A stretch of DNA of 64,000 nt from Phycisphaerales bacterium (GCA_036751825.1 DAIOTV010000002.1:966-64965); one strand, 5' to 3'. Shown: positions 6,661 to 47,392, counted from the first letter of the stretch. The notes: generated from the letters alone by a model not told the origin. Translations and numbers: made by a program.

Positions 6661-6689
6661 CGAAGGATGGCCTCAGATGCGGTCCCGGC

Positions 6690-9027: not shown

Positions 9028-9068
9028 GATTGGCAAAGAACTTGCCGCTGACGGAGGCCGCCGTCCGA

Positions 9069-11030: not shown

Positions 11031-11068
11031 ACGGATTCCTCTCGTGGTCCGCAACAATAGTGGCGACC

Positions 11069-11103
11069 GAAAACGAACGCGGCCGGGCGAAGTGCCCGGC
11101 CGC
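11069..11103 (-). terminator. Probable terminator after the MFS gene
   Basis: Hairpin GCGGCCGGGC/GCCCGGCCGC (11079-11103), followed on the minus strand by GTTCGTTTTC. Confidence 0.45.
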
Positions 11104-11138
11104 GGAAGAACTCAGGCGTGGACGGCCGCTCCCGTCGA

Positions 11139-12611: not shown

Positions 12612-12808
12612 GGCAGCGCTACCCCTCGGTGTGACTGTTTCAGCTTGGACCCATCCCTCGGCGATCGCCGGGAACGGGCATAGTACCGGAACGGCCCGTC
12701 GCGAGCGACCGGGGGTCGGGCGTCACGAAAACAAGCGATCGCCGGCCGGGCATTCGTGCCCGCCGCGCCACGCCCGACACCATCGATCGGTAAACGCTCG
12801 GTCGGGAC

Positions 12809-13777: not shown

Positions 13778-13958
13778 GGCGTTTCAGTCCCTTTATCCAC
13801 CGGGCCACCCGTCGGCCGGCCGCGACCTCCGGCCCCGTGTCCACTCCGGCCATATCAAGAATACCGACTCGGCGCGCAGAGATCGCACCCGGCCCGCCGG
13901 AAAGCGATCATCCGACCGGCGACGGCTGTCGTTTGTCGCCTGCGAGCGCCGCGATCGG

Positions 13959-21910: not shown

Positions 21911-23401
21911 TCAGATGGGTTCGGCGGCATGCTTCACCGCGGGGGGCGTTGAAGCACCGCGGAACCCGCAATCCGGCCGGGCCTTCTCGAGCAGAATGAA
22001 CAGCGCGTTGTTGACGAACGTCGGATGACGGGTCAGCAGCATGTGGTCCGTGGGGACGAAGGTCACCGCGTCCCACCGGATCGGCGTGACGACGCGGGGA
22101 ACACCCTTCATGCCCCGGCGCTCGTCCATGAGGGCACTCGACCGCAGCACCGTGCCGTCGCCGTAGTCCCGCTCGAGCACCCGGTAGCCGGTCTTGCCCG
22201 CGCCGACCTCGGCCCGGCTCGGGGTCAGCACGCCGTCGCCCGCGAACAGATGCATCGCCACATCGCTGGGCGCGTTCGCGGGCCGATCGAGTGCGTCGTG
22301 AAACTGCCTGGTTTCCTGCAGGCATCTGGCCAGATGGTCGAGCGCGATCCGCCGGCGATCCTTGGAGTCGGCAAGGTGGGGCAGCAGCACCTTCAAGATT
22401 TCGTCCGCTTCGGGGTCGGCCAGACCCCAGCGGTTCCGCTCCCAGCATTCCACCGAGAGCAGGTCGTCGATCGGCTTGCCGGTCCCGGGCTCGACGAAGG
22501 GATGGTGCCGCGTCCGCGGCATGAGCTGGTAGATCGACGGGTAGGTGCAGAGGGTCACCGGGTGATAGCCCGGCGTGGCCGGTGACTCGGGAAGCCCCGT
22601 GATCAGCCGCTCGAGCCCGCCCAACGAACCCGCGTTGGGTGTGCCGACGATGATCGCGTGCTCGATTTTCTTTGCGCCCTCCCAGGTGAGTTCGGGCAGC
22701 GACCCGTCATCGGGCAGGCACTGGGTGCCGTAGCGCAGGTAGTATCGCAGGAGCAGCCCGGCCATCGAGTGGGCGACGATGTCGACCCGCAGGTTGTCCC
22801 TCGCCTTGCCGCCCGCGTCGTAGGTGGCGAACTCCAGGACGCCGTCGATGAACGCGTCGAATCGCTTCATGTTGTCGACGACGGATCGCCGCCAGTCGTA
22901 TGAGAACTCGAAGCAGTTGGCGATGGCACGGTGGTTGTAGTTGAGCGCGAGCTTCCTGCCGGATCTCTTGGAGTCGTCGAGCGTGAAGCCGCCGACGCCG
23001 AGCATCTGGAGGATGGGCCCGTACGCCTGGACGTTCAGCGGGAAGCCGAGCACCCTTGCGCGGAGCTGGTTGATGCTCCCGTCTGAGCTTGTCTCGTCGA
23101 GTCGTTCGCGGAGGGGGGACTCGAACGGCTCCATGGGCAGGGTGATCGCCCTGAGCTGATCGGGATCGTTGGGGTCCGCGAACTCGCGTTTGGTCGAGCC
23201 GCCCCAGAGCACGCGTCCGGAAGGCCTGTCGCGCAGCCGCGAGCCCATGATGCCTGGGATGACGACCACCGGGTTCCGGGTGGAGGCGTCCTGGTGCGTG
23301 GCGTGGCCGTACAGATCGTGAGCGCGCGGGAACGCCGCGCGCGAGACGGTGCCCGCGAGCCAGACCTTCAGGTTGTGCGCTTTGGCTTTGAAGTCGTCCA
23401 T
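21911..23401 (-). CDS. Alpha/beta-hydrolase, LCAT/PGAP1-like lipase or acyltransferase family
   Basis: PVVVIPGIMGSRL oxyanion-region motif and nucleophile elbow AHSMAG. No obvious signal peptide. Confidence 0.65.
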   Translation of the reverse strand: MDDFKAKAHNLKVWLAGTVSRAAFPRAHDLYGHATHQDASTRNPVVVIPGIMGSRLRDRPSGRVLWGGSTKREFADPNDPDQLRAITLPMEPFESPLRERLDETSSDGSINQLRARVLGFPLNVQAYGPILQMLGVGGFTLDDSKRSGRKLALNYNHRAIANCFEFSYDWRRSVVDNMKRFDAFIDGVLEFATYDAGGKARDNLRVDIVAHSMAGLLLRYYLRYGTQCLPDDGSLPELTWEGAKKIEHAIIVGTPNAGSLGGLERLITGLPESPATPGYHPVTLCTYPSIYQLMPRTRHHPFVEPGTGKPIDDLLSVECWERNRWGLADPEADEILKVLLPHLADSKDRRRIALDHLARCLQETRQFHDALDRPANAPSDVAMHLFAGDGVLTPSRAEVGAGKTGYRVLERDYGDGTVLRSSALMDERRGMKGVPRVVTPIRWDAVTFVPTDHMLLTRHPTFVNNALFILLEKARPDCGFRGASTPPAVKHAAEPI

Positions 23402-23423
23402 GGTGGTTCAGCGAAGCGAGGCT

Positions 23424-23443
23424 GTACGGTCCGAGAACCGTAC
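23424..23443. promoter_or_regulatory. Inverted repeat GTACGGT-N6-ACCGTAC in the divergent lipase/kinase intergenic region
   Basis: Read directly. 7-bp perfect arms. Confidence 0.25.
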
Positions 23444-23528
23444 GCCCTCGAGATGCGGGCGGTCGGGGCTGAAGTCATCTTCTCAGCGGCCGATATCTCG
23501 GGTGACCGCAAGCGGAGGGCGGGCACCG

Positions 23529-24992
23529 ATGGGCAACGGAGCATCCGGAGAAACGCGTCAGGCGGGCAATCTGTTCGCGCGCACCGTTCCGGGGGGCCGC
23601 GTCCTGATCGCGGGTCTCGCCGGCCTTGTCCCCCTGTCGGGGGCCGCGCTGGTGGCCATCGACGCCCGAGCGGCGGGATCGATTGACTGGATCCTGCTCG
23701 GCTCGGCGGGCGCGTTCGCCGGGCTCTCGGCGTTTGTGCTTATGCGGGCGTTGAAGCGGCTGCGATGCCTTGCCGCCGTGGCCGACGCCGTGCGCACCGC
23801 CACGCTGCCTCACGCGACGGTGGGAGAGCTCCGGGTCGACTCGACGCTCGGCAGAACCGCGGACGCGTGGAACGAACTGATCGAGCGGCTGCTGAGCGGC
23901 AGCGTGTCTCAGGGGATCGAGCCATCGCGAGACCAGTCGGGCGATCCGGTCATCGACGCCCTCGCCGAGGGCGTCCTGGTCGTCGACGGCGACCTGCGGA
24001 TCCTCGCGTCAAATCCCGCGGCCGCCGCGTTGCTGACCGGCGAATCCGACCCGGCGACGGGCTGTTCCCTCACCGATCTCGAGCCGGCGGACCTGGCAGC
24101 GATTGCCCGAACCGTTCTCGCCGGCGGCCCGGTTCGGCGTGAAACCATCGAGTGCGGCACCGAAGCCTCGCCGCAGGTCCTCCGTGTGCGCGTCGCACGC
24201 GCCGCCGGCCTGGCCGATCGAGCCGTCATGACGCTCACCGACATCACCCGGCAGTCCGTCGCCGAGGCGTCGCGCGGCGGATTCCTCGCCCGTGCCACCC
24301 ACGAACTGCGGGCACCGCTTACAAACATCAAGCTCTACGCCGAGCAGGCGATCGAAGAGGGCGACGAGGATCCGCAGCTTCGGCAGGAAGCCCTGAACGT
24401 GATCGGGCGGGAGGTCCTGCGCCTGGAGCGCACCGTGGGCGATCTGCTCCGCGTGTCCGAGCTCGAAAGCGGCGCCCTCCGCGGCTCACGCACGGAAGTG
24501 CAGGTGGCGGACATGCTCTCCGAGATCCGGAGCGCATTCACGGCCGCCGCGGACGCGAAGTCCATCGGGCTGACTCTCGACGCGCCTCCGAAGCTGCCTC
24601 TGCTGTACGGCGACCGGGATCACATCGAGCTGGTCATCCAGAACCTCGTCGGCAACGCCATCAAGTACACCCCGGAAGGCGGCACCGTGCTCATCCGCGC
24701 CGATGCGGACGAGTTCGAGTTCACGCTCGAGGTGATCGATGACGGCATCGGCATCGCGCCGCAGGAGATCCCGCTCGTCTTCGAGACCTTCTTCCGCTCG
24801 GACGACGCCCGCGTCACCGAGACCCAAGGGTCAGGCCTGGGGCTCTCGCTCGCCCGCCAGCTCGCCCGGCAGCACGGCGGGGACGTCACGCTCGAATCGG
24901 AGCTGAACCGCGGCAGCACGTTCACGCTGCGCCTCCCGGTGGGCAACCGTGAATCGCAGCCCTCGATGCCGTCCGACAGGCAGGCGGCCTAA
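23529..24992 (+). CDS. Membrane sensor histidine kinase (2 TM, PAS, HisKA, HATPase_c)
   Basis: H-box ATHELRAPLT, N-box LVGNAIKYTP, G1 DDGIGI and G2 GSGLGLSL. PAS-like IDALAEGVLVVDGDLRILASNPAAAALL. Start trimmed to MGNGASGE (GGAGGG upstream). Confidence 0.85.
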   Translation: MGNGASGETRQAGNLFARTVPGGRVLIAGLAGLVPLSGAALVAIDARAAGSIDWILLGSAGAFAGLSAFVLMRALKRLRCLAAVADAVRTATLPHATVGELRVDSTLGRTADAWNELIERLLSGSVSQGIEPSRDQSGDPVIDALAEGVLVVDGDLRILASNPAAAALLTGESDPATGCSLTDLEPADLAAIARTVLAGGPVRRETIECGTEASPQVLRVRVARAAGLADRAVMTLTDITRQSVAEASRGGFLARATHELRAPLTNIKLYAEQAIEEGDEDPQLRQEALNVIGREVLRLERTVGDLLRVSELESGALRGSRTEVQVADMLSEIRSAFTAAADAKSIGLTLDAPPKLPLLYGDRDHIELVIQNLVGNAIKYTPEGGTVLIRADADEFEFTLEVIDDGIGIAPQEIPLVFETFFRSDDARVTETQGSGLGLSLARQLARQHGGDVTLESELNRGSTFTLRLPVGNRESQPSMPSDRQAA

Positions 24993-25004: not shown

Positions 25005-25340
25005 GTGCAGATTGACGAGCACAGCCAGGCCGCCGTCACGGTGCTCACGCCGCGCGGCCCTCTGACCGGAGACGACGCCGCGTTGCTCGCCGTGCGCGTC
25101 GACGCGGCTGCGGCGCAGCAGCGGGGGCGCGTCGTCGTGGATCTGTCGCACGTGTCGTTCGTCGACAGCGCCGGGCTTGAAGCGATCGTGACCCTCGGCG
25201 AGCGGTTCGAGAGGATCGCACGCAGCCTCAAGCTGTGCTGTGTCAACGAGACACTCCGCGAAGTGCTGGACCTCACGGAGGTTGACTCGTACTGCGAACT
25301 CTTCGAGGACACCTCCGCGGCCGTGAGGAGCTTCGAATGA
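25005..25340 (+). CDS. STAS-domain protein (anti-sigma-factor-antagonist family)
   Basis: VVVDLSHVSFVDSAGLEAIV, with the conserved phosphorylatable Ser in DSAGL. GTG start preceded by AAGGGGGA. Its stop overlaps the ATG of the secretion ATPase (ATGA). Confidence 0.85.
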   Translation: MQIDEHSQAAVTVLTPRGPLTGDDAALLAVRVDAAAAQQRGRVVVDLSHVSFVDSAGLEAIVTLGERFERIARSLKLCCVNETLREVLDLTEVDSYCELFEDTSAAVRSFE

Positions 25341-27103
25341 GCCTGCGGCGGCGCGGCATCCGGGTCGGCGAAGCGCTCATCGCGGCCGGAGCCATCAGCG
25401 AGCGCGATCTCGAGCGGGCGCTCACCGAGCAGGCCCGCACCGGCGCCCGGCTGGGCGAGGTGCTCGTCGACGAGGGCTACGTGTCGCAGCTGACCATGGT
25501 GCGAACGCTCGCGCAGAGCATGAACGTGCGCGGGTGCCAGCTCCGGCACGGCCTGATCGACCCAGGGCTGCTGTCGATGGTCGGCGAAGAAGAGTGCGAG
25601 CGACTGCGTGTCATCCCGATGTTCCGCGTCCGCGGCGTGATGACGGTCGCCATGTCCGAGCCGCAGAACCTGTCGAAGGTCGACCAGCTGCGCCGCCTGT
25701 CCGGATGCGAGATCCGGCCGGTGCTCGCTCTTGAGAGCAACGTGCTCGAGTTCGTCCGCAAGTATCGAGGCGGCAACGTCAGCGTCGACGAGTTCCTCAC
25801 ATCTCTCAACGAGCAGGATCTGGAGGTCGTCGAGCGCGAGAACGTCGACGAGGGCGCCGAGACCGATCTCGACCAGATGGTCGAGGGAAGCCCGATCATC
25901 AATCTCGTGAACATCGCGCTGCTCACCGCTGTCCGCGACGGCGCCAGCGATGTCCACATCGAGCCGGACAAACGCGGCACCCGGATCCGCTACCGCGTCG
26001 ACGGGGTGCTGCGCGAGCTCATGAACCCCCCGCCGGGCGTGCACGCGGCGATCGTCAGCCGGATCAAGGTCATCGGGAAGATGGACATCGCCATCAAGCG
26101 CATGCCGCAGGAGGGGCGCGTCCGCATCATCGCCGAGGGGCGCGAGATCGACCTCCGCGTGTCGAGCATGCCCACGCTGCTCGGCGAGAAAATGGTGATC
26201 CGCGTCCTCGACAAGTCGAACCTCCGCATCAGGCTCGACGAGCTCGGCTTCAAGGGCCCGGCGCTCGAGACCTTTCAGCGGATGCTGCGGAAGCCTCACG
26301 GGCTTGTGCTGGTCACCGGGCCCACCGGGTCCGGCAAGACCACGACGCTGTATTCCGCGCTTGACCAGCTGCGCACCCCGGAGCGGAACATCGTCACCGT
26401 CGAGGATCCCGTCGAGTACCAGCTCGACATGGTCAATCAGATTCAGGTGCACGAGCAGGTGGGACTCAGCTTCTCGCACTCGCTGCGGAGCATCCTCCGG
26501 CAGGACCCGGACATCATCATGATCGGTGAGATCCGGGACGAACAGACCGCGCGGGTCGCCGTTCAGGCCGCGCTGACCGGACACCTCGTGCTCGCCACGC
26601 TTCACACCAACGACGCCACGGGCGCCGTCGCGCGGCTCGGCGACATGGGCATCGAGCCCTACCTGCTCTCCGGCTCGCTCAACGGCGCCGTGGCGCAGCG
26701 GCTTGCCCGCACGCTCTGCCCGCATTGCACCGTCAAGTACTACCCGGGCGAAGCCGTGCTGATCGACGCCGGCATCCCCGAGGACGCAGGAAGACCCTTC
26801 CGACGCGGGGCCGGGTGCCAGCAGTGCCACGATTCCGGCTTCCAGGGCCGCATGGGCGTGTACGAGGTCATGGAGGTGACGCCGGAGCTGCGGCGGATGA
26901 TCCACCTCGGCGAGCCCTCGCACGAACTTCGCGCCGAGATCAGGCGGAACGGTGTGGCGACCCTGCGTGACGAAGGGGTCGATCTCGCTCGCGCGGGGCG
27001 GACAAGCCTCGAAGAAGCCCTGCGCGTCACCCACAGCGATGACGCGGCCGCTCCGGCACCGAATAGCGTATCCCAACGCAGCACGGTGGAGCGAGCGGCA
27101 TGA
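25337..27103 (+). CDS. GspE/PilB/MshE-family secretion ATPase with an N-terminal MshEN-type domain
   Basis: Walker A GPTGSGKTTT, Asp box, Walker B and His box are present, and the tetracysteine reads CPHC...CQQC. The N-terminus carries two RxGxxLIxxGxIxxxxLxxxLxxQ-type motifs. Confidence 0.95.
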   Translation: MSLRRRGIRVGEALIAAGAISERDLERALTEQARTGARLGEVLVDEGYVSQLTMVRTLAQSMNVRGCQLRHGLIDPGLLSMVGEEECERLRVIPMFRVRGVMTVAMSEPQNLSKVDQLRRLSGCEIRPVLALESNVLEFVRKYRGGNVSVDEFLTSLNEQDLEVVERENVDEGAETDLDQMVEGSPIINLVNIALLTAVRDGASDVHIEPDKRGTRIRYRVDGVLRELMNPPPGVHAAIVSRIKVIGKMDIAIKRMPQEGRVRIIAEGREIDLRVSSMPTLLGEKMVIRVLDKSNLRIRLDELGFKGPALETFQRMLRKPHGLVLVTGPTGSGKTTTLYSALDQLRTPERNIVTVEDPVEYQLDMVNQIQVHEQVGLSFSHSLRSILRQDPDIIMIGEIRDEQTARVAVQAALTGHLVLATLHTNDATGAVARLGDMGIEPYLLSGSLNGAVAQRLARTLCPHCTVKYYPGEAVLIDAGIPEDAGRPFRRGAGCQQCHDSGFQGRMGVYEVMEVTPELRRMIHLGEPSHELRAEIRRNGVATLRDEGVDLARAGRTSLEEALRVTHSDDAAAPAPNSVSQRSTVERAA

Positions 27104-28320
27104 AGTTCCGGTACGAAGCATTTAATCCGGACGGGTCGCTTGCCGCCGGTGAGATCGACGCCGACTCGCGGGCGGAAGCCGAGCAGGCGATCCGAGCGCA
27201 GGGCAGATTCCCCTCCGTCGTCTCCGCGGCGGCGACCGGCAGGCAGAAGCCCCGGCGAACCGGTCTTCAGCTCGGGCAGAACCGCCTCCGCCAGCTGACG
27301 GCGTTCACCCGCCAGCTGACTGTGCTGATCTCTAGCGGGACGCCCCTCGTGGACGCGATCGAGGCCGCGGAACGCCAGACGCCGCCGGGTCCTTGGCGAG
27401 ACATCATCGAGGATGTGCGGTCCCATGTCGAGCGGGGCGAGTCCCTCTCGGCCGCCATGGCGCGGCATCCGGGCCACTTCGACAGCGTCTACCGCAGTCT
27501 CATCCAGGCGGGCGAGTCGGGCGGCGACATGCACCGCATTCTCGAACGCCTCGCGATGATGTCGCGCCAGCGTCAGGTCGTGCAGAACACCGTCATGGGG
27601 GCGATGCTGTATCCGTCGCTGCTCCTGTTCGTATCGGGAGGCGTGCTCGTCGGGCTGTTCCTCGCCGTGCTGCCGCGGTTCGAGCAGTTGTTCGAAACAC
27701 TTGATGCGCCGCTGCCGCCGACCACGGCGGTTCTCATCGAGAGCTCGGCGTTCGTCCGGTCCAATGCGATCTGGATCGTCCTGGGAATCGCGGCGGCCGT
27801 CTCCGGTGTGATCGCCTACGCCCGGTCCGCGGACGGGCGGGCGGCGGTGCAGCGGCTCGTGGTGCGCCTGCCGCTGATCGGCGCGGCGGTGCGATCGTTC
27901 GTGGTGGCCCGCCTCGCACGGGTGCTGGGCGTGATGCTCGAAGCTCGGGTCCCGCTGCTCGAGAGTCTTCGGGTCGCGCAGGCGAGTGCCAGGCATATCG
28001 AGTACGAGGCCATCATCGGCAACGCAACGGATCGGGTCGAGCGTGGCGAGGCGCTGAGCGACTCGATCGAGGACGGGTTCCTGATCCCCTCCTCGCTCGC
28101 CGAGGCCATCCGCAACGGCGAGCAGAACGGTCGCGTCGGTGAGGTGCTCGTTGTGCTGGCCGACATGCTCGACGAGGACAACGCGATCTTTGCTCGCTCG
28201 ATCACGAGCATCCTCGAGCCGGCGATCCTGTCCCTGCTCGGCGTGGTCGTCGGAGGCGTTGCGATGAGTCTCTTCCTGCCGCTCTTTGATCTCACGGCCT
28301 CGACCGGAGGGGCACCCTGA
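27100..28320 (+). CDS. GspF/PilC-family platform protein
   Basis: Two T2SSF-type repeats, 3 TM segments, and ATGA overlap with the ATPase gene. Confidence 0.9.
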   Translation: MKFRYEAFNPDGSLAAGEIDADSRAEAEQAIRAQGRFPSVVSAAATGRQKPRRTGLQLGQNRLRQLTAFTRQLTVLISSGTPLVDAIEAAERQTPPGPWRDIIEDVRSHVERGESLSAAMARHPGHFDSVYRSLIQAGESGGDMHRILERLAMMSRQRQVVQNTVMGAMLYPSLLLFVSGGVLVGLFLAVLPRFEQLFETLDAPLPPTTAVLIESSAFVRSNAIWIVLGIAAAVSGVIAYARSADGRAAVQRLVVRLPLIGAAVRSFVVARLARVLGVMLEARVPLLESLRVAQASARHIEYEAIIGNATDRVERGEALSDSIEDGFLIPSSLAEAIRNGEQNGRVGEVLVVLADMLDEDNAIFARSITSILEPAILSLLGVVVGGVAMSLFLPLFDLTASTGGAP

Positions 28321-29189
28321 TGCTGCCGGTCTCGCATCAGACCCAGATCGGGATCGATCCCGCCGAAGACGCCGTCCGCGTCGTGGCCGCCCGCGGCAAC
28401 GTGGTGCTCGCCGCTGTGGAGGTGCCGATTGTCAAGGGTGTTGTCCCCCGTGCGGAGGCGCTGCGGCGTGCCCTGGCGGCGGTCGAGCGTCGCGGCGTTC
28501 AGGATCTCGGGCGCTGCGTCGCGATCGCACCGATGTCAATCATGACCAACGCGGTGCTGGAACTGCCTCCGCTGTCCTCGGGGGCGCCGATCGACGACCT
28601 CGCGGCGGCGGAAATGACGCGGGGCACGGACGGTGGCGGCGTCGAGGTGGCCGTCTTTCCCGTGCGAAACCGAGAGAACGGCCCCTCGGAGTACTTCGTC
28701 GCTTCCGCCCGCCGCGATGGTGTGCTGGCCCTGGTCGACGACTTTGCGGCGATCGGGGTCGAGGTGCGTGCCGTGGATGCGCCGGTGACCGCGCTGAGCC
28801 GGGCGTGCGGCACGGTGAACTGCCTCATCGCTTCCATCGTGAGGGGCGGGGCTGCTCTGCACGCCGTGCAGGGCGGAACGCCGATTCTGTCGCGGACCGT
28901 TCCCCTCACCGCCTCGCGGCTGTCGAGTGCGTTGCTTATCTCCGAGATCGACCGGTGCGCCGGATACCTCGCGACCTACCGCGCCGACGCCGCGATCGAG
29001 GAGATCGTGCTCGTCGGTTCCGCGGACACGCTGCCCGGCGCGGCGCGTGACATCGCGTGCGAGTTTGATGTCGGCGTGCGGGTGTGGGGGCGGCCAGCCG
29101 AGGGCGGCTCGGTCGACGGGCTCGGCCCGGCGTTTGCCGGCGCCTACGGCGCTGCGCGATGGGGACACACGGGGAGGGCAGCGGCATGA
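28320..29189 (+). CDS. PilM/MshI-like actin-fold assembly protein (short form)
   Basis: N-terminal QIGIDPAEDAVRVVAAR resembles the PilM GxDIGxxxxK phosphate-1 strand. Position between the platform protein and the PilN-like gene. 1-nt overlap (TGATG). Confidence 0.55.
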   Translation: MLPVSHQTQIGIDPAEDAVRVVAARGNVVLAAVEVPIVKGVVPRAEALRRALAAVERRGVQDLGRCVAIAPMSIMTNAVLELPPLSSGAPIDDLAAAEMTRGTDGGGVEVAVFPVRNRENGPSEYFVASARRDGVLALVDDFAAIGVEVRAVDAPVTALSRACGTVNCLIASIVRGGAALHAVQGGTPILSRTVPLTASRLSSALLISEIDRCAGYLATYRADAAIEEIVLVGSADTLPGAARDIACEFDVGVRVWGRPAEGGSVDGLGPAFAGAYGAARWGHTGRAAA

Positions 29190-29785
29190 AGTCCGTCAAC
29201 CTGCTGCCCAAGCCGATCCTGGCCCAGCGGACGCGACGCATCCGCCGCACGATCTGGACCCGTTCGCTGCTGGCGTACTGCATCGTTCTTCTGGCCGCCG
29301 TTCTCGCCGTCGAGGGCGTGCTGATCGAACCGACGGAGGCCCTTGAGGCTCAGTCGCTCGCCGTGGCGTCAGACATCGCGGCCAACGAGGCCCGGCTGGC
29401 GCTCCAGCAAGAACTCAAAGAGTCGCTGGTCGCCGAGCTCGCGGTCTTGACCGAGATCCACGGCCAGCCCGATTGGAGCGTGCTGATCCGGCACATCAGC
29501 GAGCACCGAGGCGAGGGTGTTGCGATTCGCTCGGTACGCGTTGCGCTCGCAGCGCAGTCCGCCTCGCAGATCACGCCGAGCCAGCTCGCGCGCGGGCCCT
29601 ACCGCGTCGAGATGAGCGGCCTCGCGCGCACGCAGTCGGACGTGACCGAGTACATGGTCCGCCTCGAACGGGCCGGGCTGCTCGGAGAGATCAGGCTGCA
29701 GGGGACCTCCCCGACACGCGTGGGCGATGAGACCGCGTTCGTTTTCTCGCTTCAGGCTCGCCTGGGAGCGGAGGGCCAAAGCTGA
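29186..29785 (+). CDS. PilN/GspL(C-terminal)-like bitopic assembly protein
   Basis: MKSVNLLPKPILAQRTRRIRR followed by one TM, the canonical PilN N-terminus (INLLP motif). ATGA overlap. Confidence 0.65.
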   Translation: MKSVNLLPKPILAQRTRRIRRTIWTRSLLAYCIVLLAAVLAVEGVLIEPTEALEAQSLAVASDIAANEARLALQQELKESLVAELAVLTEIHGQPDWSVLIRHISEHRGEGVAIRSVRVALAAQSASQITPSQLARGPYRVEMSGLARTQSDVTEYMVRLERAGLLGEIRLQGTSPTRVGDETAFVFSLQARLGAEGQS

Positions 29786-30342
29786 TGCTCAGAAACCCCA
29801 TCGATCGCGCCGGGTGTGCCATCGCCGTTGCCATCACGGCGATCGGATACGCGGGCGGAATCCGACCCGTCGTCGCTCATCAGACGCAACGCATCATGAT
29901 GGAACGCGACATCGCGAGCAAGCAGGGCGATCTCGAGCAGCTCCGCGGCGATGTGGTCGAGAAGGAAGCGGTTGTGCAGACGCTGCAGAGACGGGTGGGC
30001 GACTTTCGCACGAGCTTTGAGGCCTCGCCGCGGCTGAACGAACGGATCGGTGAGCTCGCGGCGCTGGCGGAGGTCACCGGAGTTGCCGTCGGGTCGATCC
30101 GGCCCGGGGAGCCAACCGCAGGCGACGGAGTCCGGCAGCAGCCGGTATCGATCTCGGGCCAGGGAGCGCCCGGAGACATCGCCAGGTTCCTGTCGCAGCT
30201 GCGGGTCGTGTTCCCGGACATGGGCGTGCGCAGCTTCACCGTCAGCGGTCAGTCCGCCGAGACGTCGTTGATCGCCGCCGAGCTGGTGTGGTTTACCGGT
30301 TCCAACGATCAGTCCGATTCGGAGGCCGCCCCGTCGCGGTAG
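29785..30342 (+). CDS. PilO/GspM-like bitopic assembly protein
   Basis: One N-terminal TM (CAIAVAITAIGYAG), a coiled-coil segment and a C-terminal alpha/beta region. Called by position and topology only. Confidence 0.45.
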   Translation: MLRNPIDRAGCAIAVAITAIGYAGGIRPVVAHQTQRIMMERDIASKQGDLEQLRGDVVEKEAVVQTLQRRVGDFRTSFEASPRLNERIGELAALAEVTGVAVGSIRPGEPTAGDGVRQQPVSISGQGAPGDIARFLSQLRVVFPDMGVRSFTVSGQSAETSLIAAELVWFTGSNDQSDSEAAPSR

Positions 30343-30391
30343 CGCACGCGGATTGCTTGCCGCCGCGTCGATGCGATTGCATGCTTGGGCC

Positions 30392-30901
30392 ATGGCCAGG
30401 GGGAAGCCGAACCGGATCATGCTGGGGTTGCTGGGCGTCGCGGTGCTTGCGCTGCTGACCGACCAGCTGCTTCCGGCCTCAAGCCACGCCGACGAGGCGT
30501 TCGTGCCCACGGGCACCGAGGCGCAGGCGATCGAGGCGGCTCCGTCTCCCGACGCGCTGAGGAACGGGCCAACACTCTCGGACCGCTTCGCCGGTTTCGA
30601 GCAGCCCGGCGAGCCCGACCGCGATGCCATCGGGGCCGCCTTCGCCCCCCTCGCCACAAAGGACGAGTCGACCGGGCCGGCCGCGGCCGAGCCGGAATCG
30701 AACGAGGTCGGTCTCAAGCTCTCCGCGATTCTTCGTCGGGAAGACGGGAACATCGCCGTGATCAACGGCCGCCCGCTCCGAGTGGGCGACTCGATCGATG
30801 GAGCGCGGATTCTCTCGATCGAGGGGCAGCGGGTCCGGGTCGAGACCGCCGTGGGTGCGATAACGCTCGAGCTGCAGCGTCCGAAGCTGCAAGCCGACTA
30901 G
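30392..30901 (+). CDS. GspB/MshK/PilP-like protein
   Basis: N-terminal TM, then the C-terminal LSAILRREDGNIAVINGRPLRVGDSIDGARILSIEGQRVRV typical of the T2SSB/MshK family. Alternative starts at 30353 or 30371. Confidence 0.55.
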   Translation: MARGKPNRIMLGLLGVAVLALLTDQLLPASSHADEAFVPTGTEAQAIEAAPSPDALRNGPTLSDRFAGFEQPGEPDRDAIGAAFAPLATKDESTGPAAAEPESNEVGLKLSAILRREDGNIAVINGRPLRVGDSIDGARILSIEGQRVRVETAVGAITLELQRPKLQAD

Positions 30902-30993
30902 CGCTGCCGCGTGCGCGCCCTGTTGGGCGATTTCTCCTTGCAACAGGCGTCAAGTCCGCCGGCGATCGGGACGATCTCCTCGGGGAGGTCCAC

Positions 30994-31473
30994 ATGGGGG
31001 AATTGCAAATGATGTCAAGAGCGCGCCGGCGAGGGTTCAGCCTGATCGAACTGGTGATTGTGGTGGTGATCCTCGGGATCATCGGAGCGATCGCCATCCC
31101 GCGGATGAGCCGCGGCTCCGAGGGCGCGGCCGAATCGGCCCTCAAGGCCAACCTGCAGGCCCTGCGAGGGGCGATCGATCTGTACGCCGCCGAGCATCAG
31201 GGCGCGTACCCGTCGGTCGGCGATTTCGTCGACCAGCTCACGCTCTACAGCGATGCCAGCGGAGCCACCAGTGCGACCAAAACCGGCGACTTCATCTACG
31301 GCCCGTACCTGCGATCGATCCCGCCGCTGCCCGTTGGAACGAACCAGGGCAATTCCGGTGTCGCCGCGGCAGACGGCGCGGGCGTCGGCTGGCTGTACAA
31401 CGAAACCGCGGGCACCATCGTCTCGAACACCGGCACCGAAGGCAATGGCACAACGCAGTGGAACGCGTTCTAG
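30994..31473 (+). CDS. Major pseudopilin (GspG-like; prepilin-type N-terminal methylation domain)
   Basis: RRRG/FSLIELVIVVVILGIIGAIAIPR with Glu+5. No C-terminal Cys pair. GGGGAGG upstream. Confidence 0.85.
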   Translation: MGELQMMSRARRRGFSLIELVIVVVILGIIGAIAIPRMSRGSEGAAESALKANLQALRGAIDLYAAEHQGAYPSVGDFVDQLTLYSDASGATSATKTGDFIYGPYLRSIPPLPVGTNQGNSGVAAADGAGVGWLYNETAGTIVSNTGTEGNGTTQWNAF

Positions 31474-32026
31474 TCTGAGCCGGCGTGGTTTCACGCTGGT
31501 CGAGCTCGCGGTGGTCATCGCGGTTCTCGCGGTGATCTCCGCGGTGGCGATCCCTCGGTTCGCATCCGCCTCGGCCCGTTCGAGGCTGGACGCCGCCGCG
31601 GCCAGGGTCGTGCAGGACATCGCCGTCTCCGCCGCGAGCGCGCAGGCGATGGGATCCGATCGCCAGATGGTCTTCGACGCTCCCACCGATCAGTACCTGC
31701 TCGTCGGCGTGCGGACACGCGGCGGCGGGACCTTCCGGTCGGTCCGGCTCGGCGATCCGCCCTACGAGACCAACATCGTCTCGGCGACATTCGAGGGCTC
31801 GCCGCTGCTGCGCCTCAGCGGCTACGGCGTGCCGGAGACGACCGGCACGATCAACCTCGCGGTGGGCCGCCAGGGCAAGCGCATCGTGTTGAACGCCGGA
31901 ACCGCCGCCGTGCAGGTCCGTTCGCTCGACCTTTCCGACGACGCAACCGGTGACGTGCTGCCGAGCGTCACGCGCGACGTTGACGCCGGCACGATTGACA
32001 TCGGCGCTTCGGTGAGCTTCCGGTGA
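31445..32026 (+). CDS. Minor pseudopilin (GspH-like)
   Basis: SRRG/FTLVELAVVIAVLAVISAVAIPRF. Overlaps the preceding gene by 29 nt. Confidence 0.7.
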   Translation: MAQRSGTRSSLSRRGFTLVELAVVIAVLAVISAVAIPRFASASARSRLDAAAARVVQDIAVSAASAQAMGSDRQMVFDAPTDQYLLVGVRTRGGGTFRSVRLGDPPYETNIVSATFEGSPLLRLSGYGVPETTGTINLAVGRQGKRIVLNAGTAAVQVRSLDLSDDATGDVLPSVTRDVDAGTIDIGASVSFR

Positions 32027-32526
32027 GGCGCGCGCCGCGACCACGCCGGGCGTTCACACTCGTCGAACTCGTGTCGAGCCTCTTCGTGTCGTCCGTCGTT
32101 GTCGTTGCCATGGCGTCCACTATCGGGCTGATGACGAGGGCGCTGCCGGACGCCTCGCTGCCGACGCAGACCGGCATCGTTGTGCAGCGGACACTCGACA
32201 TGATCGCGAACGACGCCCGCTTCGCCGCCGATGTCACGATCGTCGATGACGGCGAGGTCAGCATGCTCCTCCCTGATCGCGACGGCGACGGCTCGCCCGA
32301 CGTCGTCACCTATCGCTGGGCCGGTTCCGACGGCGACCCGCTCACCCGCGAGCACAAGTCGCTCGGCGAGGCTCCCCTGCTCACCGCCGTTGACGAGGTC
32401 AGCTTCGCGTGGGCCAGCTTCTCCGAGCCGGCCGGGCCCTTGCACAAGTGTCTCATGATCTCCATCCGCGTCGGCGCGACCGAGATGTCGATCGGCCCGC
32501 GCTGCCTGAATCTGGAGGCCGAATGA
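32023..32526 (+). CDS. Minor pseudopilin (GspJ/PilW-like)
   Basis: PRRA/FTLVELVSSLFVSSVVVVAMA. GTGA overlap. Confidence 0.6.
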   Translation: MRRAPRPRRAFTLVELVSSLFVSSVVVVAMASTIGLMTRALPDASLPTQTGIVVQRTLDMIANDARFAADVTIVDDGEVSMLLPDRDGDGSPDVVTYRWAGSDGDPLTREHKSLGEAPLLTAVDEVSFAWASFSEPAGPLHKCLMISIRVGATEMSIGPRCLNLEAE

Positions 32527-33131
32527 GGCTCGCCCGAGGAATCGCGATGGTCGAGGCCGTGCTCGCGACGGTGATCGTCGGCGGGCTCGCGGTCGCCGCC
32601 ATGTCGCTCGTCGGCACCATCGCGACCGAGCGGCGGGTGGCGGCGGACCGCAGTGTCGGGCACCTGCTTGCCAGGCAGCTCGCCGAGGAGATCGCGGCCC
32701 TGCCACTCGACCACACAACAAGAAGCGGGGCCGAGGGCGGCGAGGATAGCGAGGACGGAAACGACAACGGGGGCCGAAGCGGTGGACTTGTCGGCGGCAT
32801 CCTCGGTGGAGTGGCCGACGCGGTGGCTGGTCTTGCGGGCGAGGAACCAGACGAGCCGGACTCTGCCGACCGAAGCCTGCTGCTCGATGTGCTCGACTAC
32901 GACGGGTACACCAAGTCGCCCCCGGTCGACCGGGAAGGCACCGCCCTTCCGGGCGTCGAAGCCTGGATGCGGTCGGTCGAGGTCACCGAGGTGCTGCCCG
33001 GGGACCCCGATGGACCCGAGGTCGGCGGCACCGGCGTGTACCGCGTCCGCGTCACCGCCACCTTGAACGGCCGCCTCGCGGGCGAGATGGTCTTCTACCG
33101 ATCCCTCGCAGGCGACGAGGCGGTGCGATGA
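32523..33131 (+). CDS. Minor pseudopilin (GspI-like) with a Gly/Asp/Glu-rich insertion
   Basis: LARG/IAMVEAVLATVIVGGLAVAAM with Glu+5. ATGA overlap. Low-complexity insertion at 32715..32876. Confidence 0.6.
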   Translation: MRLARGIAMVEAVLATVIVGGLAVAAMSLVGTIATERRVAADRSVGHLLARQLAEEIAALPLDHTTRSGAEGGEDSEDGNDNGGRSGGLVGGILGGVADAVAGLAGEEPDEPDSADRSLLLDVLDYDGYTKSPPVDREGTALPGVEAWMRSVEVTEVLPGDPDGPEVGGTGVYRVRVTATLNGRLAGEMVFYRSLAGDEAVR

Positions 33132-34312
33132 GCCCGCGCCGTCAGGAACGCGGCGGCGTGTACCTGCTCGTGCTCGTCACGGCGGGTGTCGCGATGTCGA
33201 TGGGCGTGCTCGCGGTCGCCGCGGCCGCCTCCCAGCGGGAGATCCAGGAGATCGCCATCGACCGCGAACGCGCCGGCGCGATCGCCGAGTCGGGCATCCA
33301 CCTGGCCCTCGACGCCATCGAAGGCAACAGCACCTGGCGTCTGACCCCCGCAGGCCGCGTGCTCGGCCCGCTCACGCTCGACCGAGGACAGCTCTGGGTG
33401 GACGCCACCGATGCCGACGGCAGCCTGACCGACGATGACAGCGACCCGTTCACGCTCACCGCGACGGCGACCTTCGGCCAGGCGAGGCAACGCGTCGCGG
33501 TCGACATCGAGTCCGCGTTCGAGCCGATCGAAGCTCTGGAGCATGCGCTGGTCGCCCACGGCGGCGTGACCAATACGGGAGACATCACCCTGAGCGTGGA
33601 CACAGCCACGCTTGACATCTCGATCCCGCTTATCGCCGAGCTCGACCCGTGGAATCGCATGCGCGAGATGGGAGACATCGCCCTGCCCGATCCTGGGGTC
33701 ATCGCCCAGTATCAGGCGATGGGCACCGTGCTGCCTCAATCCATGAGCAACGGCGGTGAGGGCATGCTCTACGAGAAACTGCTGCTGACCATCGACGCTG
33801 CGGAGTCGAAGGCTGACCGAACAGCTCCGAACGCCGACCGCGTGTATGTGATCAACGGTCGCGGCGGACCGGTACTTCTTACGGACCTAAGGCTCGTCGG
33901 CACGCTCGTTGTCGTCAACGCCACCTCGCTCGAGATTTCGAGCCCGAAGACGATGCGCCCCTCGGCCGAGGGACACCCGCTGCTGCTCACCGCGGCGCCG
34001 CTCACGCTCGATGGCGTCAGCAAGAGGAGCACCAACAACGCGCTCAAAGGAGAGGACGCCAGACCGACCGGGCCCGACTTCGACCGAAAGGGCAACCAGG
34101 GTGCGCAAGGCCTGATCTACGTCAACAACAACGTGGCGATCGTGAACGAGCTTGACCTGATCGGCACGCTGATGTCGACCGGCCAGGTGTTCGTATCTGG
34201 AGAAGCGAACATCGAGCGGAACGACGCCTATCTCGAAGCTCCGCCGCCGGGCTTCCGCGGAGGCACGGTGCCCAGGATCGTGGCGGGCAGCTGGCGAGCG
34301 GTGGTCGACTAG
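33128..34312 (+). CDS. Large minor pseudopilin-like protein without Glu+5 (GspK/PilX-like by position)
   Basis: The N-terminal hydrophobic helix GGVYLLVLVTAGVAMSMGVLAVAAA lacks Glu+5, as in GspK. Last gene of the operon. ATGA overlap. Confidence 0.5.
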   Translation: MSPRRQERGGVYLLVLVTAGVAMSMGVLAVAAAASQREIQEIAIDRERAGAIAESGIHLALDAIEGNSTWRLTPAGRVLGPLTLDRGQLWVDATDADGSLTDDDSDPFTLTATATFGQARQRVAVDIESAFEPIEALEHALVAHGGVTNTGDITLSVDTATLDISIPLIAELDPWNRMREMGDIALPDPGVIAQYQAMGTVLPQSMSNGGEGMLYEKLLLTIDAAESKADRTAPNADRVYVINGRGGPVLLTDLRLVGTLVVVNATSLEISSPKTMRPSAEGHPLLLTAAPLTLDGVSKRSTNNALKGEDARPTGPDFDRKGNQGAQGLIYVNNNVAIVNELDLIGTLMSTGQVFVSGEANIERNDAYLEAPPPGFRGGTVPRIVAGSWRAVVD

Positions 34313-34337: not shown

Positions 34338-35825
34338 CTACGCCGCTCTGACGCCGATGCCCGACTGGGTCGCGTGCTCGGCGATCATCCGGTCGAACTC
34401 GGACAGGTCGAGCGACAGCAGCGCGTCGACCACGCCCGGGTCGAGCTGCGAACCGGCGGACCGGCGGAGCTCGGCGATGACCTCCTCGCGCGGCATCTTC
34501 GACCGGTACGAGCGGGTTGAACTCATCGCATCGAAGGTGTCCGCGGCGGCGACGATCCTCGCGCTCAGCGGGATGCTGTCGCCCGTCAGCCCCGCCGGGT
34601 AGCCCCGTCCGTCCAGCCGCTCGTGGTGGTGGAGCACGGCTGGCAGGATGTCCTCGAGTCCCTTGAGGTCCTTCAGAATGCGGTGCCCGATCTCCGGATG
34701 CCGCTTGATCTGGTCGTACTCGTCGTCGGTAAGGCGGCCGCTCTTCTGGAGCACCGCCTCGGCGACACCGATCTTGCCGACATCGTGCAGCAGCCCGGCG
34801 ACCCGAAGCCGTTCCGCGTGCGCGGCGTCGAGCCCGAGCCCGATCGCGATCTGCTGGCTGAGATACGCCACCCGCTGCGCGTGGCCCCGCGTGTAGCGGT
34901 CCTTGGCGTCGATCGCCGCCGACAGCGACTCGAGCACGCCCATCGCCATTTCGCGCTGCTCGTTGAACAGCCGGCAGTTGGTCAGGAAGGCCGACAGCAG
35001 CCCGACGACGGCGTCGATCAGCTTGGTGTCGTACGAGCTGACGTTGCCCGCCTCGCGATGCTTGTCGCCGGCGATGATCATGCCCACGATCCCGCGGTCG
35101 TTCCGCAGCGGCCGAACGATCGCCTGCGGCCCGTTGAACGCGTCCAGCGACATGCCGTCCAGCGCCATCACGCCCAGCAGCCGGTCGAGGTGTTTCAGCT
35201 CCGTCCCGTGCTTGGCTTCGCCGTCCCAGTGCGTCTTTCCCGCGAGCATGGGTCCGACGTCCGCCGCGTCCGACAGGTGCACCGCGACATACCCGAACGC
35301 GAGCGTCTGCCGGACGCGTTTGCAGGTGACCGACAGGAACCGCTGCGGCTCGTCGAGGCTGGCCATCGAGTTGCCCAGCGCGTACATGAGCTCCAGCATC
35401 TCGAACGCGTCGGTGATCTGATCGGCGAGATCCGTGACTTCGTCCTCGAGCTCGTTGATCGCGAGCCCGTCGCGGATTATCTGCTCGAGCGACGGGATGC
35501 AGCGAAGCAGCTCCGCATCGGGCGCGATCGCCCCGCCCGACCCGGGCCTGCAGGTGACCAGCAGCGAGCCGAGGTCGTCGTCGCGATGCTGTAGCGGCAG
35601 CCTGACCCGCGCCGCGTGAGGTCCTTCGGTGACCACGGCGCCGACGGGGTGGTCCGCAAGCCGACGGAGATCGCCGTCGGCGGCGCCCAACCCGTCGGGC
35701 CTCGAGCCGTCCGGCGCGAGGTAGACGCACTCGAGGCCGAGCTCGGAGGAGCGAGCCTGCACGATTTTCAGCAGAGGCGCGATCCGGCGATCGATCCGGT
35801 GTGGCTCGCACGCATGGTCGGTCAC
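34338..35825 (-). CDS. GAF-domain HD-GYP c-di-GMP phosphodiesterase
   Basis: HD-GYP motifs HAQRVA, LLHDVGKIGV and HHERLDGRGYPAGL. GTG start at 35825 overlaps the receiver gene stop (GTGA). The rest of ORF 34338..36095 upstream is read-through of the neighbouring gene in another frame. Confidence 0.85.
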   Translation of the reverse strand: MTDHACEPHRIDRRIAPLLKIVQARSSELGLECVYLAPDGSRPDGLGAADGDLRRLADHPVGAVVTEGPHAARVRLPLQHRDDDLGSLLVTCRPGSGGAIAPDAELLRCIPSLEQIIRDGLAINELEDEVTDLADQITDAFEMLELMYALGNSMASLDEPQRFLSVTCKRVRQTLAFGYVAVHLSDAADVGPMLAGKTHWDGEAKHGTELKHLDRLLGVMALDGMSLDAFNGPQAIVRPLRNDRGIVGMIIAGDKHREAGNVSSYDTKLIDAVVGLLSAFLTNCRLFNEQREMAMGVLESLSAAIDAKDRYTRGHAQRVAYLSQQIAIGLGLDAAHAERLRVAGLLHDVGKIGVAEAVLQKSGRLTDDEYDQIKRHPEIGHRILKDLKGLEDILPAVLHHHERLDGRGYPAGLTGDSIPLSARIVAAADTFDAMSSTRSYRSKMPREEVIAELRRSAGSQLDPGVVDALLSLDLSEFDRMIAEHATQSGIGVRAA

Positions 35826-36235
35826 GCCGCCGCCTTCCTGTCCGGAGCCCACGACAGGATCCGGCACACCAGGTCGGCGACTGCGGTCGCGCTGAACGGC
35901 TTCTCGAGCACCTCGACGATGCGGGTCTGCCGCAACCGGGTGTCGTCCAGCAGAAAGCCCCGCCCGCTGATCATCACGATCGGGACCTGAGAGGTGACCG
36001 GGTGCCCCGCGAGGGCGAGTGCCATCTCGAGCCCGTCCATTTTGGGCATCTGAAGATCGCTCAGGATCAGCGACGGCGGCCGCTCGACCGCGCACGCGAA
36101 CCCCTCGGCGCCGTTCCGGGCCACCTTCACATCCGCGCCGAGCTTTGCGAGCTTACGTCCGAGAATGTGGGTGATGTGCGGCTCGTCATCGACGAGGAGA
36201 ATCACGGGCCACGCTGTCCGTTCGGCGTCGGGCAT
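35822..36235 (-). CDS. Stand-alone response-regulator receiver (CheY-like)
   Basis: ILLVDDEP, phospho-acceptor context LILSDLQMPKMDG, and a conserved EKP (Lys) near the C-terminus. Confidence 0.9.
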   Translation of the reverse strand: MPDAERTAWPVILLVDDEPHITHILGRKLAKLGADVKVARNGAEGFACAVERPPSLILSDLQMPKMDGLEMALALAGHPVTSQVPIVMISGRGFLLDDTRLRQTRIVEVLEKPFSATAVADLVCRILSWAPDRKAAA

Positions 36236-41327: not shown

Positions 41328-41428
41328 CGGCGTCCCGCACCCGAACCCGTCCCGAAGCCGGCAGCGCATCAAGGTGGCCGAGGCGGATGCCGATCCCTCT
41401 CTGGATTGCGATTCGCAGGGGGTCTGGT

Positions 41429-42268
41429 ATGCCGGCACGACGATCGAGAACCGAGCGGTGGCAGGAATCACTCCGCGAGCTCGCGGGCCGACGCGGGCCG
41501 ATCGAGATCAGCATCCCCGCGCACCAGGCCAAGTCGCTGAACTGGCGCGTGCGGCTGCTCGACATCCGGGGCAACCGGCTCATCGTCGAGCAGCCCATCA
41601 CCCTCGGCCGGCGCGTGCCCGTTTCCGTCGGAGCTTCGATTGTCGGCGGGATCTCCATCGGTCAGAACCGCTGGATGTTCACCACGGCCGTTCTCGCCGC
41701 GGGCGAGCAGACCATCGGCGGCCGCCCGCAGCATGTCCTCGAACTGCTGATGCCCGAGGAAGTCGAACGCTGCCAGCGTCGTTCGTTCTACCGCATCTCG
41801 ACCGCGGCGCTCGATCTGCCCGAGGTCGCCTGCGCGGCGCTCGGCGATCCGGGGGAGGCCGTGCCGCTCCAGGTCGCCACGCGTGCCGCCATCCTCGACG
41901 CCTCCGGATCGGCGACCACCCCCGACGCCGAAACGCTCGGATTGGCCTCGCCCTCGACCGGGCTGACGGGCCACGGCGAGCTTCTGAACATCGGCGGCGG
42001 CGGGGCCTGCCTGCGGATGCCGCCCTCGTGCGGATCGCTGCTCGACCGTCCTTCCTACTTCCTGCTGACGCTCGACCTGACCCCCTCCGTGCCGCTGCCG
42101 CTGCCGATCACCGCGAAGCTGGCCCACACACGGATCGACTCGAGCCAGAGCACCCAGGCCGGCTTTTCGTTCGACTTCTCGCAGAATCAGGGGTACGAGC
42201 CGTTCGTCAGCGAGGTCATTTGCCGGTACATCGCCGGCCTCCAGTCCGATTTCCGCGAAGCCGCCTAG
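41429..42268 (+). CDS. PilZ-domain protein (YcgR-like two-domain architecture)
   Basis: RRSFYR (RxxxR) and NIGGGG (variant of D/NxSxxG) about 75 aa apart. AGGGGG lies 7 nt upstream of the ATG at 41429. Alternative start at 41387. Confidence 0.7.
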   Translation: MPARRSRTERWQESLRELAGRRGPIEISIPAHQAKSLNWRVRLLDIRGNRLIVEQPITLGRRVPVSVGASIVGGISIGQNRWMFTTAVLAAGEQTIGGRPQHVLELLMPEEVERCQRRSFYRISTAALDLPEVACAALGDPGEAVPLQVATRAAILDASGSATTPDAETLGLASPSTGLTGHGELLNIGGGGACLRMPPSCGSLLDRPSYFLLTLDLTPSVPLPLPITAKLAHTRIDSSQSTQAGFSFDFSQNQGYEPFVSEVICRYIAGLQSDFREAA

Positions 42269-47261: not shown

Positions 47262-47392
47262 CCTATTTTGCCCGAAGTGGTGATTTACTCGGCAATCCCC
47301 CCTTGCGGGTTTGTCGTTTCCCGTGTAGATTGTTGAATCACGCGGGCGGGTTCTCCGTCCGAGCACTGGTCTCGTGGCTGGAGGTTGTTGTC

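Follow-up and report, generated by a model that had tools for sequence, protein, structure and literature searches.

The secretins of type IVa pili (T4aP) are paired with tetratricopeptide-repeat (TPR) pilotins, and the type IV pili of Gram-positive clostridia are encoded in operons of the order pilB-pilC-pilM/N-pilO-minor pilins-pilK. In Planctomycetota, pili and crateriform-associated fibers have been implicated in attachment and polymer uptake, and their machines are uncharacterized; our literature search found nothing on pili of the class Phycisphaerae. The genes of T4aP systems are as a rule spread over several loci, and the system for type II secretion (T2SS) was derived from within T4aP (PMC6668835). 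Here we analyzed a 64-kb stretch of DNA (68% G+C) from a Phycisphaerales bacterium (GCA_036751825.1, DAIOTV010000002.1:966-64965); we call this whole stretch the window and give all positions in its coordinates. Its positions 25005-34312 (+) carry a block of 12 genes that a first-pass annotation had described as a secretin-less hybrid of the T2SS, the mannose-sensitive hemagglutinin (MSHA) pilus and T4aP. We conclude, with a probability of roughly 0.78, that these genes make up the core operon of a T4aP-class machine (a type IV filament) that is conserved across the class Phycisphaerae, with its secretin and prepilin peptidase encoded elsewhere. An ordinary T4aP-class machine with unlinked pilQ/TPR and pilD genes is the simplest reading, because its PilM/N/O/P proteins, ATPase architecture and ComZ-like tip pilin, together with the secretin and TPR protein of relatives, are of the T4aP type and T4aP are multi-locus systems.

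The 12 open reading frames (ORFs) form one co-directional chain rich in third-position GC. We labeled them by order: g1, STAS; g2, ATPase; g3, platform; g4, PilM; g5, PilN; g6, PilO; g7, PilP-like; g8, major pilin; and g9-g12, minor pilins. Mechanical ORF lists were noisy because of the high G+C content of the window; ORF mapping nevertheless bore out the coordinates of the block, and the junctions were as tight as had been claimed, with overlaps of 1-29 nt and two gaps. From g1 to g6 the overlaps are 4, 4, 1, 4 and 1 nt in succession, and from g8 to g12 they are 29, 4, 4 and 4 nt. A gap of 49 nt precedes g7, assuming that this gene starts at 30392 (169 aa), as in protein-collection entry P0012, and a gap of 92 nt precedes the major pilin gene. 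Conserved neighbors extend the block beyond these 12 genes, however: a gene for a PAS-HisKA-HATPase_c sensor histidine kinase (23349-24992, +; start codon uncertain; Pfam HATPase_c 1.4e-31, HisKA 1.2e-12, PAS_4 1.5e-7) stops 12 nt short of the STAS gene and is probably the first gene of the operon, and convergent receiver (REC) and HD-GYP genes are conserved with the block.

An Rfam scan found no riboswitch or other RNA family in 22.5-36.5 kb, and matches in a promoter and terminator scan were at chance level. Within the 92-nt gap (30902-30993, +), a small GC hairpin precedes a T-rich tail (30916-30929); in this region, terminator-like matches occurred at chance frequency (4 observed, 3.3 expected). 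The hairpin could be an attenuator or a processing site that sets the ratio of pilin to machinery.

Scanning species-representative genomes with the ATPase yielded 80 loci, all from metagenome-assembled genomes of Phycisphaerae/Planctomycetota, with ATPases 64-94% identical. In the synteny check across Phycisphaerae, the order kinase-STAS-ATPase-platform-PilM-PilN-PilO-P-like-major pilin-three minor pilins-large tip pilin was kept in at least 45 of the 80 loci (tblastn and a chained gene caller), and a kinase homolog lay upstream of the STAS and ATPase genes in nearly all of them.

The ATPase (g2, 25337-27103, +; Pfam T2SSE 1.9e-134) is probably a PilB-type extension ATPase with an N-terminal MshEN domain (6.4e-12), predicted to bind cyclic di-GMP (c-di-GMP). 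It passes the c-di-GMP motif model NF053729 of NCBIfam (61.9 bits, cut-off 38), and both 24-residue MshEN motifs and the tetracysteine motif can be seen in its sequence. Its end-to-end matches in the PDB were Geobacter PilB (5zfr, 502 bits), Myxococcus PilB and Thermus PilF, the best matches being PilB proteins at 488 to 502 bits, whereas matches to GspE were partial, covering residues 176-574 or, for 4pht, residues 108-566. The first-pass annotation had called the MshEN ATPase MSHA-like. The domain is indeed present, as it is in MshE of the Vibrio cholerae MSHA system, but the T4aP PilB proteins of Myxococcus and Thermus carry it at the N terminus too, as does PilB2 of Clostridium (PMC11656802); because MshEN is common in T4aP PilB, it is no MSHA signature and does not discriminate. 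In combining this N-domain with full-length similarity to PilB, the ATPase agrees with those of the T4aP of Myxococcus xanthus and Thermus thermophilus.

Against the NCBIfam equivalog models, the ATPase scored 580.4 bits as PilB (TIGR02538, cut-off 675.65) and 575 bits as GspE (cut-off 630.25). The inner-membrane platform protein of the PilC/GspF family (g3, 27100-28320, +; Pfam T2SSF 2.2e-51, two stretches) scored 318 bits as GspF (cut-off 424) and 235 bits as PilC. The ComG models were missed (ComGA 255.6 bits, cut-off 300; ComGB 127, cut-off 240; ComGC 30, cut-off 75), and unlike the monoderm Com pilus the locus has PilM, PilN, PilO and a P-like protein. By sequence alone, motor and fiber are thus intermediate between T4aP and T2SS, in agreement with the derivation of T2SS from within T4aP (PMC6668835).

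These scores bear on a second reading of the locus, as a type II secretion system in which a short periplasmic pseudopilus, with a GspG-like major subunit and a tip at the GspK position, would push folded exoproteins such as the neighboring amylases or glycosidases through a secretin. The locus shares the ATPase/platform/pseudopilin core of the proteobacterial T2SS (GspC-O), Gsp models give the best scores for its platform, its major pilin and the first of the minor pilins, glycoside hydrolase genes lie in the window, and Phycisphaerae are rich in carbohydrate-active enzymes (PMC11131199). We nonetheless consider type II secretion unlikely. The ATPase carries MshEN and aligns over its full length with PilB, instead of having a GspE-type N1 domain, and the scores stay below the Gsp cut-offs (GspE 575/630, GspF 318/424, GspG 44.8/88.85); the alignment complex, tip pilin and secretin evidence given below also speaks against it.

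Single-sequence searches of Pfam and NCBIfam were uninformative for PilM (a weak match only), PilO, g7, g11 and g12, so we gathered orthologs from related genomes, built profiles and searched them against PDB sequences. The profile of g4 (28320-29189, +) matched PilM, the actin-like cytoplasmic ring protein, of Myxococcus (3jc8, 1.2e-30), Thermus (2ych, 1.8e-28) and Pseudomonas (5eox, 2.5e-28). For g5 (29186-29785, +), which passes the Pfam PilN cut-off (24.2 bits, cut-off 22.8), the top match was Myxococcus PilN (3jc8_N, 9e-4), and g6 (29785-30342, +) matched PilO of Myxococcus (8.3e-16) and Pseudomonas (2rjz, 3.1e-5). The alignment complex therefore has the split PilM/N/O form, as had been proposed, and not the GspL/M form of the T2SS: E. 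coli GspL and GspM gave no phmmer match, and their positions are taken by PilM, PilN and PilO.

Separate PilM, PilN and PilO together with a PilP-fold protein are found in the Myxococcus and Thermus T4aP as well, which differ in that motor, alignment and pilin genes are here united in one operon (B-C-M-N-O-P-pilins). A single operon with the order ATPase-platform-PilM/N/O-pilins is a feature shared with the clostridial type IV pili; here, however, the host is diderm, the locus has a gene of the PilP fold and relatives have a PilQ secretin. Compared with the V. cholerae MSHA system (MshI-Q, MshE), PilM and PilN are separate and not MshI-like, MshL, MshM and MshN are missing from the locus, and the set and order of the pilins differ; no MSH-specific model was among the NCBIfam matches returned, dedicated MSH profiles not having been searched.

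PilM is shortened in the window and its closest relatives (loci L001, L003, L072 and L078), at 289-315 aa versus approximately 350 aa elsewhere. In the window protein, approximately 42 residues are deleted internally after residue 205, and the N-terminal IGxDxG loop reads IGIDPAED, which suggests that nucleotide binding by PilM may be degenerate.

The protein at the PilP position, g7 (30392-30901, +), had been described as a T2SSB-type, GspB/MshK-like protein. Pfam gave no support for T2SSB, but the fold does lie in the class formed by PilP, the homology region (HR) of GspC, and GspB. The ortholog profile matched the GspC HR domain (2lnv, 1.6e-3) and GspB (4wfw, 7.4e-3) in the PDB. An AlphaFold2 (AF2) model had an N-terminal transmembrane helix, a disordered linker and a C-terminal beta domain (approximately residues 110-160) with a predicted local distance difference test (pLDDT) score of 92-95; structure prediction used shallow alignments of 11 and 6 sequences. 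In a Foldseek search of the PDB with the C-terminal domain, the top eight matches all belonged to the PilP/GspC/PulC/GspB class, with superpositions at root-mean-square deviations (rmsd) of 2.0-2.7 over 56-66 columns. They included GspB, the PilP proteins of three species (Myxococcus, 3jc8_P; Pseudomonas, 2y4y, rmsd 2.0 Å; Neisseria), the HR domain of GspC in complex with the N0 domain of GspD (3oss_C, TMt 0.71) and the PulC chain of the outer-membrane complex of PulD (6hcg). Comparisons by hhalign of the g7 and g12 profiles with single E. coli sequences of GspC, GspB, HofP and GspK were weak (P ~0.01-0.4).

To our knowledge, the PilP/GspC-HR/GspB fold docks the inner-membrane platform onto the secretin N0 domain in every characterized system, and PDB entries 3oss and 6hcg are complexes of this kind. 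On the strength of its modeled fold, g7 is therefore predicted to be the N0-docking subunit at the PilP position. Its topology is bitopic and not that of a lipoprotein: it has an N-terminal transmembrane helix and no lipobox Cys, in which it differs from its counterpart in the Myxococcus and Thermus T4aP. It shares the HR domain with GspC but consists of that domain only, without the PDZ or coiled-coil region of the T2SS protein (NCBIfam GspC_delta 20.8 bits, cut-off 150), and as a small protein of the HR/T2SSB class it is comparable to MshK of the MSHA system. A sub-threshold CdsD_C match is common to g7 and the P-like protein of a distant locus described below (L085), which has a T2SSB match too.

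Class III signal peptides were evident from sequence and alignments in all five of the remaining proteins (g8-g12), with Glu+5 in g8-g11 and not in g12. The major (pseudo)pilin g8 (30994-31473, +; N_methyl 3.2e-8), the most conserved pilin across loci (50-88% identity), contains no Cys and its best NCBIfam model is GspG (44.8 bits, below the cut-off of 88.85), in keeping with the G-like major subunit without a disulfide loop proposed earlier. Its profile matched Geobacter PilA-N (1.4e-14), Thermus PilA5 (2.2e-10) and PulG (6.4e-9) in the PDB; the longest of these alignments was the one with PulG, a point in favor of type II secretion. The minor pilins g9 (31445-32026, +; N_methyl 1.5e-6) and g10 (32023-32526, +; N_methyl 20.9 bits, just below the 21.2 cut-off) were, with g8, those on which Pfam found N_methyl. 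The former is GspH/FimU-like (NCBIfam GspH 35.8 bits, cut-off 80), and g11 (32523-33131, +) is weakly PilV-like (NCBIfam PilV E 0.01). The Glu+5 claimed for the minor pilins was seen in g9-g11; in the alignments, E15 of g10 and E11 of g11 (consensus RRGxTLxE) are invariant. The profiles of g10, g11 and g12 matched N-terminal pilin helices or nothing among PDB sequences, the match of g10 being confined to the N-terminal helix. Orthologs of g10 (in L006, L009, L012, L015 and others) fall into two size classes, of approximately 165 aa (window) and approximately 350 aa or longer, which suggests gain or loss of an inserted domain.

The large last subunit, g12 (33128-34312, +), had been likened to GspK. 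Its lack of Glu+5 and its place at the GspK position are sound and are shared with the T2SS; its inserted domain, however, is ComZ-like. At the sequence level g12 did not match GspK, and the AF2 model (pLDDT 81.4, predicted TM score 0.69) combines a pilin helix and sheet with a beta-solenoid, as in ComZ, in place of the alpha-domain of GspK. In Foldseek searches of the PDB, the top match was Thermus ComZ (6qvi, E 1e-6, probability 1.0), followed by ice-binding beta-helices. ComZ is a tip pilin whose pilin domain is most like GspK, a likeness to ice-binding beta-helices has been reported for it too, and Thermus minor pilins likewise resemble Gsp proteins (PMC6561018). Because such Gsp resemblance also occurs in Thermus, that of the pseudopilins is no ground for calling the system a hybrid, and the hybrid description does not hold for a locus whose alignment complex, ATPase architecture and tip pilin are of the T4aP type. 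A set of four minor pilins that closes with a ComZ-like beta-solenoid tip pilin is likewise present in the Myxococcus and Thermus T4aP.

A further prepilin-like ORF lies outside the operon (47183-48508, +), with an N_methyl match (4.3e-8) at residues 75-101 of the stop-to-stop ORF; the approximately 340 residues that follow have no other Pfam match, and E. coli GspG matches the ORF weakly.

No Secretin domain was found by Pfam in any substantial ORF of the window, and phmmer searches of all six-frame ORFs with E. coli GspD and HofQ found no secretin, so the earlier statement that the 64 kb lack one stands. The inference that the machine is truly secretin-less is unlikely to hold: the docking-fold protein g7 is retained, and secretin genes were found beside two orthologous cassettes and within a third, more distant locus. 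The two cassettes, L045 (Tepidisphaeraceae) and L027, have ATPases 66-67% identical to that of the window. Their secretins, detected with the same E. coli queries (Pfam Secretin, PF00263, 3e-38 and 1e-39, respectively, with STN and Secretin_N, the latter just sub-threshold in L045), are each followed by a TPR gene, and each secretin-TPR pair directly adjoins the kinase gene, in divergent orientation. Locus L085, reached through a relative of the L045 secretin, carries, on one strand, pilins-PilM-PilN-PilO-P-like-secretin-TPR-PAS kinase-REC-HD-GYP-STAS-MshEN ATPase-platform. Its 412-aa pilin is homologous to the genes at the g12 position, and its 200-aa P-like gene, immediately upstream of the secretin gene, to those at the g7 position. 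L085 shows that a PilQ-type secretin goes with this parts list, including the signaling genes.

For the L045 secretin, 2848 relatives were found; the best 120 of these are 55-84% identical, most of the source-named ones among them are called PilQ, some come from Phycisphaerales, and none lies on a contig of the 80 loci. In locus L088, a secretin-TPR pair has no ATPase within 10 kb, and split arrangements therefore exist. We infer that the secretin of the window's own genome is encoded at another locus. The PilQ-type secretin with a TPR partner that relatives have, and multi-locus encoding, are traits of the Myxococcus and Thermus T4aP, with the difference that no AMIN-domain match was reported for the relatives' secretin. 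The PilQ source names, the single Secretin_N and the TPR partner also argue against type II secretion, as do the absence of a GspD secretin from the window, and of any secretin gene from the operon, and the ComZ-like rather than GspK-like tip pilin.

L085 and L045 are more alike in secretin (62% identity) and TPR protein (47%) than in ATPase (42%) or in platform (31%). Normally the order of conservation is the opposite, and this could reflect module exchange or a shared secretin. L085 also encodes an 86-aa protein whose homolog in both L045 and L027 is a small gene lying upstream of the secretin gene.

A truly secretin-independent machine, that is, a periplasmic or envelope-adapted filament without an outer-membrane pore, would fit the lack of a secretin in the 64-kb window and in a near-identical 76-kb contig, its absence within 10 kb in 78 of the 80 loci and the internal deletion in PilM of this clade. 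We regard such a machine as very improbable, since the window has kept the secretin-docking gene, which is conserved at the PilP position. Moreover, orthologous cassettes with an adjacent secretin exist, this secretin family is abundant and has Phycisphaerales members, and multi-locus encoding is the norm for T4aP (PMC6668835).

The absence of a prepilin peptidase, also claimed earlier, holds within the 64 kb: neither Pfam nor phmmer with E. coli GspO against six-frame ORFs found Peptidase_A24 in any substantial ORF. It is a window-boundary effect, however. A contig in NCBI, CAZLMJ010000004.1 (GCA_964560815.1, 76,396 bp), matches the window at 99.9% identity; the window starts at position 6463 of the contig, which carries an ExoVII-peptidase-OmpA group at 278-2615. 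The peptidase gene (523-1830; A24_N_bact and Peptidase_A24) lies 4.6 kb outside the window and approximately 30 kb upstream of the cassette. Seventeen of the 80 loci have a peptidase gene (~465 aa; A24_N_bact 5e-31; Peptidase_A24 24.4 bits, just below the cut-off of 26.5) and an accompanying OmpA-family gene immediately upstream of the kinase gene. Of the secretin and peptidase that the first-pass annotation had allowed might lie just beyond the window, the peptidase was thus found there and the secretin in relatives only.

Window positions 1-14769 aligned to this contig, the only long public one found, with 12 mismatches and two gaps in 14.8 kb, and the 12.3 kb of positions 51737-64000 with five mismatches; from the first overlap to the second the coordinate offset shifts by 41 nt, of which 3 nt fall inside the first overlap and the rest outside it. 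Short Logan contigs from SRR3311151 match the window at 99.97-100%. We also considered the large ORF 6690-9068 (-) as a divergent secretin and rejected it, since searching the window by phmmer with secretins of E. coli and of Phycisphaerae gave no match. This ORF and another at 3500-4771 (+), which precedes genes for an ABC ATPase and an FtsX-like permease, are large and rich in third-position GC and have no Pfam match (729 aa and 423 aa, respectively, in the NCBI record).

Several observations weigh against assigning the locus to the T4aP class. Every NCBIfam equivalog cut-off was missed, those of PilB and PilC included, and the ATPase is a near-tie between PilB and GspE (580/575), while GspF outscores PilC for the platform and GspG is the best fit for the major pilin. 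No second T2SSE-family ORF that could be PilT was found in the window or in the flanks of the 80 loci, which departs from the Myxococcus and Thermus T4aP and would suit type II secretion. Secretin genes adjoin only 2 of the 80 orthologous loci, none turned up in the 76 kb covered of the window's own genome, L085 is distant (ATPase 42% identical), and the signaling circuit set out below is deduced from domain content and gene linkage only.

If the locus encodes a T4aP-class machine, the four minor pilins would prime the filament on PilC, and PilB would polymerize the major pilin. PilM-N-O-P would bring the inner-membrane motor into line with a secretin of the PilQ type by means of the contact between the HR domain and N0, with the secretin and its TPR partner supplied from another locus and the prepilin peptidase from approximately 30 kb upstream. 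The output is most likely a c-di-GMP-gated surface pilus for attachment, or for capture of DNA or polymers at the tip.

The genes flanking the core suggest how extension might be controlled. Downstream of the pilins and convergent with the operon lies an HD-GYP c-di-GMP phosphodiesterase gene (34338-35825, -), whose only Pfam matches are HD_5 (6.1e-39), HD (2e-21) and HDOD and whose translation contains the motif HHERLDGRGYP. A gene for a single-domain response-regulator receiver (35822-36235, -; Response_reg 4.9e-19) overlaps its start by 4 nt. An HD-GYP homolog was present within 10 kb downstream of the ATPase gene in approximately half of the loci, mostly in convergent orientation, and REC homologs were found in 42 ORFs across loci. 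L085 has both, its REC matching that of the window (phmmer 1.6e-21) and its HD-GYP protein showing a weak GAF_2 match. An ORF at 41042-42268 (+) has a sub-threshold match to PilZNR, the N-domain of YcgR-type c-di-GMP receptors (21.9 bits, cut-off 23), and may be another c-di-GMP effector near the locus.

At the other end, the first gene of the 12-gene block encodes a single-domain STAS protein of the SpoIIAA/RsbV type (g1, 25005-25340, +; PF01740, 7.2e-17). Between its stop codon and the ATPase start there is a 4-nt overlap in the window and in 56 of 77 loci, and a 1-nt overlap in 9 more; in L085, too, the STAS gene is directly upstream of the ATPase gene. The serine of the SpoIIAA-type motif [F/Y]VDSxGLE is conserved in 77 of 78 STAS sequences. 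This translational coupling of a STAS gene to pilB sets the locus apart from the Myxococcus and Thermus T4aP, and in the literature library searched we found no paper linking STAS domains to PilB.

From these domains we propose a circuit in which the PAS kinase would phosphorylate the single-domain REC, which in turn would tune the HD-GYP phosphodiesterase and hence the c-di-GMP level, to be read by PilB through MshEN. There are parallels in the way c-di-GMP controls MshE of V. cholerae and PilB of M. xanthus (PMC11656802), and c-di-GMP-gated extension, the likely logic here, is shared with the MSHA system. The putatively phosphorylatable STAS protein, made stoichiometrically with PilB, would provide PilB with a second input. 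More speculatively, STAS might serve as a phosphorylation-dependent partner-switch cofactor that binds and gates PilB or its MshEN domain, forming with the kinase, REC and HD-GYP protein a dedicated two-input switch (phospho-STAS and c-di-GMP) for extension; judging from gene linkage, we think this possible but on balance doubtful. If true, STAS would represent a class of PilB regulator outside current reviews.

Taken together, these results give a class-wide parts list, with coordinates, for a T4aP-class machine of Phycisphaerae, in which the secretin (for the window's own genome, placed elsewhere by analogy with relatives) and the peptidase are read as unlinked and not as missing. For genome scanning they carry a caution, namely that finding no secretin or peptidase in the 64 kb around a T4aP-like operon is expected and not anomalous. 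They also point to a compact regulatory module, made up of the kinase, REC, HD-GYP, STAS and MshEN-PilB, that may govern pilus extension in this class.

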